Source: an uncultured Gammaproteobacteria bacterium (GTDB lineage: Bacteria > Patescibacteriota > Microgenomatia > Levybacterales > GWA1-39-11). Taken from it: a stretch of 64,000 nucleotides of DNA. The position numbers and the translations under genes are program-made. Position 1 is the stretch's first letter; each line of letters opens with the position of its first letter. Positions 29,111 to 32,426 of this stretch are shown here, in pieces. Location of the stretch: assembly GCA_964537315.1 (NCBI GenBank), contig CAZIAP010000001.1:121149-185148 (forward strand), written 5' to 3'. The notes beneath the pieces were generated by a model. That model saw only the letters and a list, made by a program, of their open reading frames with translations, was not told the DNA's origin and ran no database searches.

Positions 29111-29377
29111 TTAGCGGCTTCCTCCTTTTCTACCTGCTTCAGATGCGCGTTCTGGGTCATTTTTGAAGTTTCCTCCACTTTCTGATCCACCACGGCTTCT
29201 TTCTTCAGTAGTCAGTTCGTGTGCATGTCCACTCTTCTGTGCAGCTTGTCCGCCTTTTCTACCGATCTCGCTCATATCTTGTTTAGATGAACTAGCTTGA
29301 CCGCCCTTACTACGGGCTTTCTCAGCAGTAGCTTCATCATAGTTCTCTGATGCAAATCCTCTGTTGCTATTTGCCAT
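29111..29377 (-). CDS. KGG-repeat general stress protein (YciG/con-10-like)
   Basis: Repeated RKGGQA / SKGGQAS / GRKGG segments (KGG domain). Start placed at MANSNRG because of the AGGGGGTG RBS. Confidence 0.7.
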   Translation of the reverse strand: MANSNRGFASENYDEATAEKARSKGGQASSSKQDMSEIGRKGGQAAQKSGHAHELTTEERSRGGSESGGNFKNDPERASEAGRKGGSR

Positions 29378-29544
29378 ATTTTTCACCCCCTTTAAAGTTC
29401 AAATGTTTCTGCTTATATATCAACATGGATTGATATGTTACTCAATTAGCGTAAAAGTTTAATCATAGAATTGCACGGTACTCGTAAGTAAGCAGGCAAG
29501 TTTATATCTTTTTTCTTACGAACTCAAGATATAATAAGTTTTTT

Positions 29545-30225
29545 ATGATTCCAATTTCAGATTCAGTTAAATCACTTAAGTTTCCATTATTTAATCTTGC
29601 GATTATTGCTTTAAATATTTATGTATTCTATTTAATGCTTACATCTCCAGATATTGAGGCGTTTATTAATACCTTTGCACTAATACCTGCACAAGTTAAT
29701 TTTTCTGATACAAATAGTCTAATCCCATTTGTTACATCTATTTTTTTACATGGGGGATTTTTGCATATCGCGTCAAATATGTTGTTTTTATGGGTTTTTG
29801 GCGATAACATTGAATCTCATTTCGGCAAACTATGGTATCTGATGATATTTTTTATATCCGGTATTGCAGGTGGACTTGCGCAGTATATTTTTAACCCTGA
29901 CTCTCAGATACCAATGTTAGGAGCATCAGGGGCAGTATCTGGAATCTTGGGCGCATATTATGTCTCCCATCCCCACGCAAAAATAAGATCTATCGTGTTC
30001 ATTTTCTTTTTTGTAACTATACTGAAAGTTCCAGCATCAATTTATATACTCTATTGGTTTGGTTTACAGGTATTATCAGGATTTTTATCTATTGGAGAAG
30101 GTGATGTTGGCGGAATTGCGTTTTGGGCACATGTCGGTGGATTTATCGCAGGAGTTGTATTGGCAAAAATTGGAAATAAAGAGTATCATGAAGGAATAAT
30201 TGAAGGTGAATTCGAGGAAGTCTAA
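29545..30225 (+). CDS. Rhomboid family intramembrane serine protease
   Basis: HGGFLHIASNMLFLWVFG and the catalytic GASGAVSG...H motifs in a 6-TM protein. Confidence 0.85.
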   Translation: MIPISDSVKSLKFPLFNLAIIALNIYVFYLMLTSPDIEAFINTFALIPAQVNFSDTNSLIPFVTSIFLHGGFLHIASNMLFLWVFGDNIESHFGKLWYLMIFFISGIAGGLAQYIFNPDSQIPMLGASGAVSGILGAYYVSHPHAKIRSIVFIFFFVTILKVPASIYILYWFGLQVLSGFLSIGEGDVGGIAFWAHVGGFIAGVVLAKIGNKEYHEGIIEGEFEEV

Positions 30226-30269
30226 ACTAGTTATTAGTTAGTGCTTTGTTTATTTTAAATTAGAGAATT

Positions 30270-30464
30270 ATGGACATTGGTAGAGTTTTAATATTTATAG
30301 GTATAACATTAATAGTTGCTGGGGTAATTTTTACATTTTTACCCAAACTTCCCGGAGATATTTATGTGAGAAGAGGAAATTTTACTTTCTTTTTCCCCAT
30401 AGTCACGTCAATTATTATCAGTATTATATTGACTATTCTTATAAATATTTTTCTTAGAAAATAG
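30270..30464 (+). CDS. DUF2905 family small membrane protein
   Basis: 64 aa: ...FLPKLPGDIYVRRGNFTFFFPIVTSIIISIILT matches the DUF2905 pattern. Confidence 0.55.
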   Translation: MDIGRVLIFIGITLIVAGVIFTFLPKLPGDIYVRRGNFTFFFPIVTSIIISIILTILINIFLRK

Positions 30465-30530
30465 CATTAAATAAGTAATAAATTTGCAGTTATTGACACG
30501 AATTTATGTACTACGTATAGTTAAAATAAG

Positions 30531-31007
30531 ATGAAATGTCGTAAATGTGAAAAAGACTTAGTTTCATCAAGTAGGCATTTAAATTGTCCCAGTTGTAGGA
30601 AAAAGTTATACAAAAATAAATGTCCATTATGTAATAGTTTAAAGCAAAGAAAATCCGCTCGTTGCATACACTGTTTAAATAAAAGCAAACAATATCCATT
30701 TTCTAATAAAAAGCATATTAATAAGAGTGGATATGTATATGTATATTACCGTTCTCATCCTTATTGTGACAAAGAAGGAAGAATTCTAGAACATAGGTTA
30801 GTAATGGAAGAAAAACTTGGTAGATATTTATTGCCTACTGAAAGCGTTCACCATAAAAATGGAATAAGAAGTGATAATCGTATTGAAAATTTAGAATTAT
30901 GGGTCAATTCGCAACCGACTGGCACTAGAGTCGAAGATGTAGTAAAATGGGCACAGGAAATCATAGATTTATATGGTGATGTTAGCTCAGTTGGCCTAGA
31001 GCGCTAG
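30531..31007 (+). CDS. HNH (HNH_3-type) endonuclease with an N-terminal Cys-rich zinc-ribbon region
   Basis: CRKCEKDL..CPSC..CPLC...CIHC, then YVYVYY...EHRLVMEEKLGR...VHHKNGIRSDNRIENLELW (the HNH_3 motif). The 3' end (30975..31007) overlaps tRNA-His. Confidence 0.7.
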   Translation: MKCRKCEKDLVSSSRHLNCPSCRKKLYKNKCPLCNSLKQRKSARCIHCLNKSKQYPFSNKKHINKSGYVYVYYRSHPYCDKEGRILEHRLVMEEKLGRYLLPTESVHHKNGIRSDNRIENLELWVNSQPTGTRVEDVVKWAQEIIDLYGDVSSVGLER

Positions 31008-31053
31008 GTTGTGGTCCTAGAGGTCGCCGGTTCGAATCCGGTACGTCACCCCA
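30975..31053 (+). tRNA. tRNA-His (anticodon GTG) with G-1 and an encoded CCA
   Basis: G(-1)gtgatgt acceptor; D-arm gctc-agttggccta-gagc; anticodon arm ctagg-ttGTGgt-cctag; T-arm gccgg-ttcgaat-ccggt; acgtcac plus C73, then CCA. Confidence 0.8.
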
Positions 31054-31069
31054 AATAGTCCTATAGCAC

Positions 31070-31098
31070 TTGACATTTAGCCTTTTTTCTGCTACAAT
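31070..31098 (+). promoter_or_regulatory. Consensus sigma70 promoter (TTGACA-N17-TACAAT), copy 1 of a duplicated ~42-nt block
   Basis: ctatagcacTTGACAtttagccttttttctgcTACAATtcac. A near-identical block sits at 31513..31554. Confidence 0.55.
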
Positions 31099-31140
31099 TC
31101 ACAAATCTTTATCTTCTTGGATTAGGAAAAGGAGTTCGTC

Positions 31141-31341
31141 ATGAAAGACTACAATTTTCCTGTATATGGCACCCAAGGTGGTGGACTTGCCAGGGAGGTA
31201 AACGGCACGTTTATCTTTGTCGAGAAGCCTGATGTGTCCGGGCTTGATGTCGGGGACGAAGTTCCCGAGATGTGGGGACTGATTCCAGCAAATGCACTCG
31301 CGCTGGATAAAGAGCGAGACGCAAGCTATTACGGCATCTAG
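31141..31341 (+). CDS. Hypothetical small protein in a locally GC-rich islet
   Basis: 66 aa with an AAAGGAG RBS. Its codon usage is visibly GC-richer than the surrounding genes. A GC-rich hairpin (GGGCGCGC...GCGCGCCC) follows. Confidence 0.4.
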   Translation: MKDYNFPVYGTQGGGLAREVNGTFIFVEKPDVSGLDVGDEVPEMWGLIPANALALDKERDASYYGI

Positions 31342-31522
31342 TCGAACACACTATAATTAATCTTGGCACTAATTGTGCCTCAGGGCGCGCAAGTAAGTCG
31401 GAAAAATCCGACCGAACGCGCGCCCATTTTCGACTATAAAGTGAAGAGATGATCGTAGTTTAGTAAGTTTTAATAGTATCGGTCCTTAGTTATTATTGTT
31501 CAGGAATAACAACCTATAGCAA

Positions 31523-31551
31523 TTGACTTTTAGCCTCTTTTTTGATAGAAT
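31523..31551 (+). promoter_or_regulatory. Consensus-like promoter (TTGACT-N17-TAGAAT), copy 2. It predicts a leaderless transcript.
   Basis: ctatagcaaTTGACTtttagcctcttttttgaTAGAATtcactccATG. The ATG at 31559 is about 7-8 nt after the -10 box. Confidence 0.5.
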
Positions 31552-31558
31552 TCACTCC

Positions 31559-32218
31559 ATGAATAAAGAATCCTCTGCTATTCTTATCCATGCCAGTGGT
31601 GTGGATGAAACACGGCCTGATTTTCCTGATACTGTTGCTCGTCAGTCCGCTCTTGCAGCTGCTGAGTTGTATAGGCAGGACCGAGAGAATACATATCTTG
31701 TAATAAATGCTGGAATGCATGACGATACAGTGCTATCAGAAAATCTCGCGAATCATATTAGACGACTACTCCGTGCAGAAACAAACCCTGAAGTGGATGA
31801 TCATTTAATTGTTCATAACACTGCTCGTGATACTCACAATGAAGTATTGAATTTCAAGTCAGTTAGTGAAGTTAATAATTGGGATAAACTATATGACCTT
31901 GGTCCTGAATCCCAATATTCACGAAGAGAGCGGGCAGTAAATCGTATAATGCCAAATAAAATTCCTTCGGAGAACATTATTAACGCAGAAGATGTGTTAA
32001 GAAATATGAATGAGGAAAGATATAGTAAAGTTATTGAATTCGTACACAGTACTCCTAAATATAAATCATTTGCGATTTATAATAAGGGTTTGGATATTAT
32101 TGATGGATTGCCTTTAGGAGGGGCAATGCTTAATATTATGAGTAAAGTAGTTTCAAATGAATCAAAAACTGCTGTAGGAAAGCTAATTAATCAGGTACGA
32201 AATGTAATGCATCGTTAA
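31559..32218 (+). CDS. DUF218/YdcF-like domain protein (diverged)
   Basis: Start moved to the ATG at 31559 (leaderless). ILIHASGVD...RQSALAAAELYRQDRENTYLVINAG...SENLANHIRRLL...DHLIVHNTARDTHNEV matches the DUF218 (YdcF/ElyC/SanA) pattern. Confidence 0.45.
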   Translation: MNKESSAILIHASGVDETRPDFPDTVARQSALAAAELYRQDRENTYLVINAGMHDDTVLSENLANHIRRLLRAETNPEVDDHLIVHNTARDTHNEVLNFKSVSEVNNWDKLYDLGPESQYSRRERAVNRIMPNKIPSENIINAEDVLRNMNEERYSKVIEFVHSTPKYKSFAIYNKGLDIIDGLPLGGAMLNIMSKVVSNESKTAVGKLINQVRNVMHR

Positions 32219-32426
32219 AATAGAAATTCGCTACAATATCTTGAATTTCAGACCTAAGTCTCTATGGCTTTATCGCTAAGGACTCTAAGCTTTCTAGACT
32301 TAAGTACGTATATTGAACTATCTCATTAAAAGACGGCACAGAAACCTTTTGAGTCTTTTGAATAAATTGTACCCAGAAGTATTTGAAAAGATTGTACAAA
32401 CATATGTCTTCAGTTAAAATGAAATT

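Follow-up and report, generated by a model that had tools for sequence, protein, structure and literature searches.

The interval from 30531 to 32218 of a 64,000-nt stretch of contig CAZIAP010000001.1 (the whole stretch is called the window here) was analyzed. The DNA comes from a bacterium of the CPR/Patescibacteria type, with a small genome. On the plus strand it contains an open reading frame (ORF) for an HNH_3-type endonuclease that runs into the gene for tRNA-His (GTG), followed by a GC-rich ORF of 66 amino acid (aa) residues, a strong hairpin, two copies of a sigma70-type promoter block, and a gene for a protein of 219 aa residues. The original prediction had read all of these as one small horizontally acquired module. 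The HNH ORF (30531-31007, 158 aa) is preceded by a putative sigma70-type promoter (30493-30521; TTGACA-N17-TATAGT, an 11/12 match to the consensus). The −10 box of this promoter (30516-30521) lies 9 nt before the ATG at 30531, without a Shine-Dalgarno (SD) sequence. The protein matched Pfam HNH_3 (PF13392) with 40.6 bits (cut-off 24.8, E = 2e-10) and phrog_20891, “HNH endonuclease”, at 1e-35. Its N-terminus contains two CxxC…CxxC zinc ribbons, and these are backed by four invariant CxxC pairs. When 32 HNH sequences were compared, the invariant residues were C3/6/19/22/31/34/45/48, E87, H88, H107, H108, N110, D115, N116, and N120. Judged from these residues, the catalytic His and Asn and the metal ligands of the HNH core appear to have been kept intact, and a nuclease with a DNA target is predicted. 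The ORF is AT-rich, and its G+C content at third codon positions (GC3, 0.22) is below the window average.

The tRNA-His gene was located at 30976-31053 by ARAGORN and by Rfam (61.3 bits), with G-1 at 30975 and an encoded CCA at 31051-31053. No intron was found in it: Rfam showed an uninterrupted tRNA, and no intron family matched even at E ≤ 5. The TAG stop of the HNH ORF (31005-31007) falls in the anticodon stem of this tRNA, so that the two genes overlap by 33 nt when G-1 is counted, and the last 11 HNH codons with their stop are tRNA sequence. In the D-loop of the window tRNA there is one extra base (GGCCTAG), the usual form in HNH-linked tRNAs being GGT-TAG; because of this base, the frame skips the TAG of the D-loop and stops at the next TAG, which gives 158 aa and a tail reading …SVGLER, a tail also seen in a few other clusters. 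The zinc-ribbon HNH_3 assignment, the 33-nt overlap and the encoded CCA as the only one in the window (the other seven of its eight tRNAs lack it) had all been called from the letters alone, and all three were borne out. As a marker of the HNH-tRNA unit the CCA was rejected, given that it was present in only two of four HNH-linked tRNAs examined.

The overlap had been described for the window alone. A search with the HNH protein returned 2973 relatives at E ≤ 1e-10, and those above about 60% identity were almost all 156 aa long. Among the 120 best homologue clusters (clustered at 90% identity), 76 ended in …LYG[DG][VI]SS.G. Read in the frame of the ORF, G-1, the 5′ acceptor strand and the D-arm of the tRNA (GGT GRT GTT AGC TCA NTT GGT TAG) encode this tail; tail-bearing HNH genes therefore lack a stop codon of their own and depend on the D-loop TAG (GGTTAGAGC), which is where most of them end, at 156 aa. 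One cluster (P0085) translates through the entire tRNA, including the GTG anticodon region. Source names on the tail-bearing clusters included Saccharimonadales, Daviesbacteria, and Microgenomates.

DNA was available for six independent HNH loci, namely the window, L040, L120, L121, L122/123, and L206/207. A tRNA-His (GTG) started inside the HNH ORF in all six, and each had a TTGACA-type −35 box, with a spacer of 17-18 nt in the five other loci and of 17 nt (N17) in the window; the spacer contained TCCACA in 5/6 loci. The −10 box ended 6-7 nt before the HNH start codon in L040, L120, L121, L122, and L206, and 9 nt before it in the window. Similarity between the loci ran from the −35 box to the 3′ end of the tRNA, which delimits a conserved unit of ∼560 bp made up of a promoter, a leaderless ORF, and a tRNA. 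Within the ORF (nt 0-419, five loci), only 1-5 of 20 third positions were invariant per 60-nt bin, compared with 17-28 of 40 first and second positions. The overlap is a conserved architecture of the whole HNH subfamily and no local accident, a point that the original prediction had missed. We regard this architecture and its conservation with high confidence. Among Patescibacteria, there is a clade in which the cassette acts as a single unit that reaches from the −35 box to the tRNA 3′ end.

Outside this subfamily the association was not seen. In 79 metagenome loci of distant HNH homologues (≤50% identity), no tRNA was found at the end of the ORF, aside from L072, where ARAGORN called a “tRNA-???” with a 4-base anticodon 13 nt past the end of the HNH match. 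No tRNA occurred within 2 kb in 80 viral HNH loci. A phage origin of the exact cassette was rejected, since these viral loci offered neither a full-length homologue at ≥60% identity nor a linked tRNA. Two distant homologues (clusters P0179 and P0190) have C-terminal tails with EGIEPS or EGVEPS, which resemble the translated reverse complement of a tRNA T-arm (GGGTTCGATCCC); these tails suggest that other HNH_3 genes adjoin tRNAs on the opposite strand.

The surroundings of tRNA-His were compared among relatives. In the window, L121, and L122, the HNH gene lies between a DUF2905 or rhomboid gene and tRNA-His, whereas in L037 (GCA_964448725.1) the DUF2905 gene is followed by a 73-nt spacer and then tRNA-His, with no HNH gene between. 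By OmdA identity (window-L037 78%, window-L120 77%, L037-L120 80%), L037 is about as near to the window as L120 is. The tRNA-His alleles differ as well. L037 has the acceptor GTGGTTG/CAGCCAC and the T-stem GCGGG/CCCGT, and all HNH-linked tRNA-His genes have the acceptor GTGRTGT/ACRYCAC and the T-stem GCCGG/CCGGT; the window tRNA is 72% identical to that of L037 and 79-90% identical to the HNH-linked alleles. In L040, a 44-nt 5′ stump of tRNA-His (2386-2430) lies ∼25 nt upstream of the −35 box of the cassette. The stump begins with G-1 and reaches the 3′ strand of the anticodon stem, GTG included, its junction is at the variable-loop position, and its acceptor is of the HNH-free type. L038 and the L040 stump agree with the L037-type states over the parts that they cover. 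Evidently, an older tRNA-His of L040 was truncated when the cassette arrived with a complete tRNA-His of its own.

The gene following tRNA-His differed in every relative examined, being the 66-aa gene in the window, a GIY-YIG gene in L037, OmdA in L120, RidA in L121, and a hydrolase in L122. The single gene order in all relatives that would have spoken against acquisition was therefore not what was found, and the surroundings of tRNA-His are supported as a hot spot of gene-content change. No integrase gene was present among the window ORFs, and no tRNA-derived direct repeat was found in 30400-32400 or within ±400 nt. In L037, the 96-aa GIY-YIG gene (501-791) lies directly 3′ of tRNA-His, and on either side of it the last 16 nt of the tRNA are found as a perfect direct repeat (TCCCGTCAGCCACCCA, 449-464 and 823-838). 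The opposite end of the tRNA-His gene has therefore been colonised as well, by a second nuclease family that is unrelated to the first. The AATAGTC flank after the L037 repeat (L037:449-838) is the same as the flank after the tRNA-His of the window.

Downstream of the cassette, the 66-aa ORF (31141-31341) is preceded by the SD sequence AAGGAG (31129-31134), 6 nt before its ATG. It is followed by a hairpin at 31365-31379 and a GC-clamped compound hairpin at 31383-31425, then A-UUUU; together (31365-31430) they form a probable intrinsic terminator of the 66-aa transcript. The hairpin region folded at −37.6 kcal/mol, compared with −20.4±3.0 for shuffled sequences (z −5.75, 0/200 as good), which strongly supports the hairpin noted in the original prediction. 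Its tail is short (A-UUUU-CG), and a consensus terminator scan did not list the hairpin at 31383-31425; the terminators of homologous genes, with a hairpin and a T run, are clearer. A tRNA-like minihelix was considered for this hairpin and rejected, its loop having no T-loop consensus and no tRNA match being found there. An Rfam search of 30200-32300 at E ≤ 5 returned only the tRNA and a chance snoRNA match, with no riboswitch, intron, or small-RNA family.

The base composition of the window was calculated. GC content ranged from about 0.30 to 0.43 per kilobase (0.366 overall), and the 54 long window ORFs had a GC of 0.368±0.030 and a GC3 of 0.285±0.035. Against these, the 66-aa ORF stood out with a GC of 0.512 (z = 4.9) and a GC3 of 0.537 (z = 7.2), in agreement with the GC-rich codons that had been remarked on. 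Composition is indeed non-uniform, the local rise being limited to the tRNA, the 66-aa ORF, and the hairpin. As the HNH ORF is AT-rich and the 219-aa gene average, the supposed GC islet breaks down into a tRNA, a single small gene, and the hairpin of a terminator.

The 66-aa protein had 73 homologues at 42-77% identity, and an exhaustive profile search (E ≤ 0.001) gave a family of 396 clusters at 50% identity. Its motif reads PVxGTQGGG…FVEKP…VGD..P..W..PAN, with V8, T11, Q12, G13-15, F26, P30, G38, D39, P42, and W45 invariant. The top profile match of the family, a protein of 6424 aa (P0199), was rejected as a false positive, being a T/D/N-rich giant repeat protein with 55 repeat matches of ∼2 bits each. 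Genome loci (29) were obtained from Uhr-, Harrison-, Woese-, Vogel-, Taylor-, Buchanan-, Colwell-, and Zambryskibacteria and from metagenome-assembled genomes labelled Saccharimonadia. Gene GC exceeded locus GC in 29/29 genomes (mean +12.1 points), and in 18/29 loci the GC3 was above that of every neighbouring ORF. Pairwise identity was 0.35-0.46 at third codon positions, compared with 0.76-0.91 at the first and second. Third positions are thus nearly saturated and yet rich in G and C, which makes the high GC a maintained property of the family and no scar of recent transfer. In the 28 loci that were printed and inspected by eye, a promoter-like box and an SD sequence preceded the homologue in most, and a GC hairpin with a T run followed it in about 17.

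No recurring neighbour was found in three or more of the 29 loci, and linkage to tRNA-His or HNH was seen in none of the 29 other loci. The AlphaFold model of the protein had a mean predicted local distance difference test score (pLDDT) of 89.8 and showed four short strands and a C-terminal helix; no match was obtained in Pfam, PHROG, NCBIfam, PADLOC, or PDB sequences, nor any significant structural match. On the evidence of conservation, the 66-aa ORF is a real, strongly conserved protein of Patescibacteria, and the features that mark its gene here, namely a high GC, a strong SD, and a terminator hairpin, are traits of the family. The GC-rich synonymous sites may possibly be due to a constraint on the RNA or on expression that has yet to be described for Patescibacteria. 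In four loci (L008, L014, L019, and L021), a near-identical 3′ untranslated region with two hairpins (…GGCTGCTTCA…GAAGCTACGA.GACGACCCGCC.TAAGAGGTCGTCTTT…) follows homologues whose coding third positions differ. A second GC rise in the window (0.44-0.47), on the minus strand at 29111-29386, corresponds to a gene for a 91-aa KGG-repeat stress protein (Pfam KGG, 5e-12) rich in Gly, Ala, Arg, and Ser.

The duplicated promoter was confirmed as two copies of a 43-nt block, identical at 37/43 positions. Copy 1 (31060-31102; −35 box at 31070-31075, −10 box at 31093-31098) lies before the 66-aa gene, and copy 2 (31513-31555; −35 box at 31523-31528, −10 box at 31546-31551) before the 219-aa gene (31559-32218). 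Both read TTGACx-N17-TGnTAnAAT. A 23-nt core pattern in IUPAC code, with two N and up to 3 mismatches, matched these two sites only in the window (0 expected). The ATG at 31559 is 7 nt past the −10 box of copy 2, without an SD sequence, and so the leaderless geometry proposed for this gene was found again. In L037, the orthologue (80% aa identity) has the promoter CCTATAGCAATTGACA…TGATAAAATTCACTTCATG, which ends 7 nt before the same ATG. The same block at the same spacing identifies copy 2 as the ancestral promoter and shows conservation of the leaderless geometry. With copy 2, copy 1 has 86% identity and five derived spacer bases in common, and with the L037 block 79% identity; being nearer to copy 2, it arose within the lineage by duplication or else by gene conversion. 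The stretch that it covers, −44 to about +1, was placed before the leader and SD of the 66-aa gene itself. A block beginning with CCTATAG was also found directly after the HNH-linked tRNA-His of L206 (3521-3575); in it, …TTTTTGATATAAT precedes the ATG of a 635-aa gene by 6 nt, a layout like that of the 43-nt block. CCTATAG as a general promoter-associated motif was rejected (4 window matches, 5.7 expected).

Start sites were surveyed in the 54 window ORFs of at least 100 aa. A −10 box (≥5/6 match) was located 4-12 nt before the ATG in 18/54 genes, with a peak at 6-9 nt, compared with 3.8±1.9 at random, and an SD sequence was present in only 7/54. This geometry suggests that translation in this organism starts by default on leaderless or near-leaderless mRNAs, and the unusual start in the interval is that of the SD-led 66-aa gene, not that of the leaderless 219-aa gene.

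Only four homologues of the 219-aa protein were found, each with its start at the equivalent Met (M-[NS]-K-E), and its gene is of ordinary composition (GC 0.365, GC3 0.24). It had been labelled DUF218/YdcF-like, a label that was not upheld: the Pfam DUF218 match (E = 0.0048, 17.2 bits) is below the cut-off of 27.6 bits. The AlphaFold2 model (pLDDT 83), a Rossmann-like alpha/beta domain with a helical tail, matched YdcF (3ca8) in Foldseek weakly (E = 0.01, template modelling score 0.43, 164 columns) and as the 13th among generic Rossmann-like matches that include G6PD, SRP GTPases, and USP. No NCBIfam match, no PDB sequence match with a 5-sequence profile, and nothing in an exact look-up of the protein was found. 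Near the start of this gene, Logan contigs of four independent assemblies (SRR7082966, SRR7082968, SRR7082976, and SRR7082982), all 100% identical to the window, break at 31612-31641, where the upstream and downstream contigs overlap by 24-30 nt. A recombination junction was considered for these breaks and set aside, as ∼35 nt there are identical to L037 (by eye), which points to a k-mer common to co-occurring relatives.

Taken together, these results are best explained by three adjoining transcription units with separate histories in a 1.7-kb interval, of which one is a homing-type cassette and the other two stand apart from it, a reading that we consider probable while leaving real room for doubt. 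The cassette (Unit A, 30493-31053), which joins a promoter, a leaderless HNH gene, and tRNA-His, would be of selfish type. The second unit (Unit B, 31060-31430) would be a stand-alone 66-aa gene driven by a recent copy of its neighbour's promoter, and the third (Unit C, 31513-32218) would express a lineage-restricted Rossmann-like protein from a leaderless mRNA and an ancestral promoter. For Unit A, a free-standing homing endonuclease gene most likely settled at the 5′ edge of tRNA-His, and by co-conversion the cassette would carry its own tRNA-His allele along. Since the HNH ORF reads into tRNA-His without a stop of its own, a single transcript most likely serves as both nuclease mRNA and tRNA precursor. 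The cassette has probably been retained because the loss of it or of its promoter would harm a tRNA gene that is essential. With moderate confidence, we regard Unit A as a homing-type element, now long-resident, that may be stabilised by the overlap and by a probable supply of promoter activity to tRNA-His.

Several observations weigh against this account of Unit A. The comparison behind its mobility draws on few genomes with one clearly HNH-free close relative, L037, and on tRNA-His itself, no second tRNA serving as a divergence control. The L040 stump stands alone, no further tRNA-His stumps being found in the window, L120, L121, L122, or L206. Moreover, the window HNH protein is 64-70% identical to those of L120, L121, and L122, which is like host genes (rhomboid 52-55%, malic enzyme 78%), and the order malic enzyme-tRNA-Arg-rhomboid-HNH-tRNA-His is common to the window, L121, and L122. 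Host-like divergence and a recurring gene order imply that inheritance in the clade has been largely vertical over the long term, which would be unusual for a purely selfish homing gene. The dependence of tRNA-His on the upstream promoter may also be weaker than supposed: a TAAAAT box inside the HNH 3′ end (window 30919-30948, codons VVKWA), which precedes the tRNA 5′ end by 27 nt, shows no variation among five HNH loci, synonymous sites included, and could be an independent internal promoter of tRNA-His. A stronger version of the dependence, in which the sole effective tRNA-His promoter lies upstream of the nuclease ORF and the nuclease stop lies inside the tRNA, would make the cassette an “addictive” selfish element of new design, as any deletion of the nuclease or its promoter would cost the host its tRNA-His. 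Once RNase P had cut at the tRNA 5′ end, the nuclease mRNA would be a non-stop message, and nuclease dosage would be coupled to, and throttled by, tRNA maturation. We regard this version as doubtful.

The same gene order and the same range of HNH identity are what would be expected if HNH-tRNA-His were a domesticated, vertically inherited operon with a cellular role, e.g., in tRNA or DNA metabolism, the element being immobile and the overlap a matter of compaction. Strong purifying selection with intact catalytic residues and the lack of viral-contig copies with a linked tRNA also agree with such an operon. It accounts poorly for L037, which is no more distant than L120 and yet has no HNH gene and a different tRNA-His allele, for the stump directly upstream of the L040 cassette, for the rearranged context of the cassette in L120, and for a domain family otherwise typical of phage and homing endonucleases; a domesticated operon is therefore conceivable, and we think it less than probable. 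Were the overlap a meaningless run-on, with the HNH protein ending earlier or decaying and the extension a gene-calling artefact, it would be understandable that the PHROG profile match stops near residue 150 and that distant homologues lacking the tRNA tail end soon after …LYG. Yet none of the 76 tail-bearing clusters has an in-frame stop before the tRNA, frame and stop position are kept across loci at about 30% protein divergence, and the coding-type substitution pattern continues right up to the tRNA, all of which makes a run-on highly improbable.

The view of the whole interval (HNH, tRNA-His, 66-aa gene, hairpin, promoters, and 219-aa gene) as a single small horizontally acquired island has in its favour the local GC peak, the tRNA flank, the presence of a nuclease gene, and the variable gene content 3′ of tRNA-His. 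The variable gene content and the absence of HNH from L037 do uphold a hot spot of gene-content change at this site, and it is the oneness of the module that fails: none of 29 loci of the 66-aa family shows linkage to HNH or tRNA-His, L037 has the 219-aa gene with the same promoter and neither HNH nor the 66-aa gene alongside, the GC of the HNH and 219-aa genes is host-like or lower, and integrase and tRNA-derived direct repeats are lacking in the window. The GC excess of the 66-aa family in all 29 genomes and its saturated synonymous sites speak against a recent transfer as the source of the composition shift, and the promoter and leaderless 219-aa gene drop out of any module with an ancestral promoter and a start layout typical of the genome. 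A single island is thus very improbable, and the reading as three units with separate histories is preferred.

The overlap is of interest as the fixed design of a nuclease subfamily (at least 76 clusters) within a bacterial radiation that is among the largest and the least understood. Should the cassette home, it would illustrate by what route the alleles of an essential tRNA are replaced by a selfish gene, and how such a gene is anchored there through a promoter and a stop codon that it has in common with the tRNA. The cassette also provides a testable case of mRNA translation coupled to tRNA processing. In annotation, tRNA-overlapping ORFs should not be trimmed or discarded, and in phylogeny the tRNA-His allele types of these genomes may track the history of the element rather than that of the organisms. 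The 66-aa family, with about 400 clusters, a confident model, and no structural match of significance, is a candidate for a function peculiar to Patescibacteria, and the start-site data add sequence-level evidence that leaderless initiation is dominant in this lineage.

The nearest known counterparts of the cassette are free-standing genes for homing endonucleases in the tRNA gene clusters of phages, e.g., SegB of T4 (review PMC2988022; SegB paper PMC13096335) and the HNH enzymes of T5. As in these phages, the nuclease gene of the window stands alone beside a tRNA gene and is not intronic, it is present in some relatives and absent from others, and it is expected to spread by cutting the nuclease-less allele and co-converting the adjacent tRNA marker. 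The cassette differs from them in being chromosomal in Patescibacteria, with no tRNA-linked form in viral contigs, and in its constant tie to tRNA-His alone. Moreover, the ORF of the window type overlaps the tRNA and borrows its stop codon, and the gene is leaderless, has its promoter in common with the tRNA, and is apparently long-resident. In Patescibacteria, HNH (PF01844) genes have been described inside group I introns at position 35/36 of tRNA-Asn (PMC13011429). These introns resemble the cassette as HNH-family mobile elements at tRNA genes of the same phylum, whereas the window has no intron and its HNH gene, of HNH_3 type, is upstream of the tRNA. In PMC13011429, a term search gave no mention of “tRNAHis”, and a literature search on the combination of HNH, tRNA-His, and homing returned nothing relevant.

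Integrase islands and prophages at tRNAs are similar in that a tRNA borders variable DNA and, in L040 and L037, a duplicated piece of tRNA marks the insertion; in contrast to them, the cassette has no integrase, is only ∼560 bp long, shows no tRNA-derived direct repeat in the window, and was inserted at the 5′ edge of the tRNA, where the 3′ end is usual for islands. In animal mitochondrial genomes, genes overlap with tRNAs and tRNAs punctuate the transcripts. The likeness lies in a coding frame that enters a same-strand tRNA, so that 5′ processing of the tRNA would set the 3′ end of the mRNA; unlike in mitochondria, this takes place on a bacterial chromosome and concerns a single gene family of selfish type, with no genome-wide strategy of compaction. 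Leaderless mRNAs are common in Actinobacteria and Deinococcus-Thermus, with which the window genes agree in a start codon 6-9 nt past a consensus −10 box and in the absence of an SD sequence; the case of the window differs in being known from sequence geometry and in coming from a genome of Patescibacteria type, and a literature search on leaderless genes, Patescibacteria, and Shine-Dalgarno found nothing. To our knowledge, same-strand overlap between a protein gene and a tRNA gene is rare in bacteria. What sets the cassette apart is this same-strand overlap with its borrowed stop, together with a leaderless start and an exclusive tie to tRNA-His, and it thus represents a new variation on the theme of the free-standing homing endonuclease.

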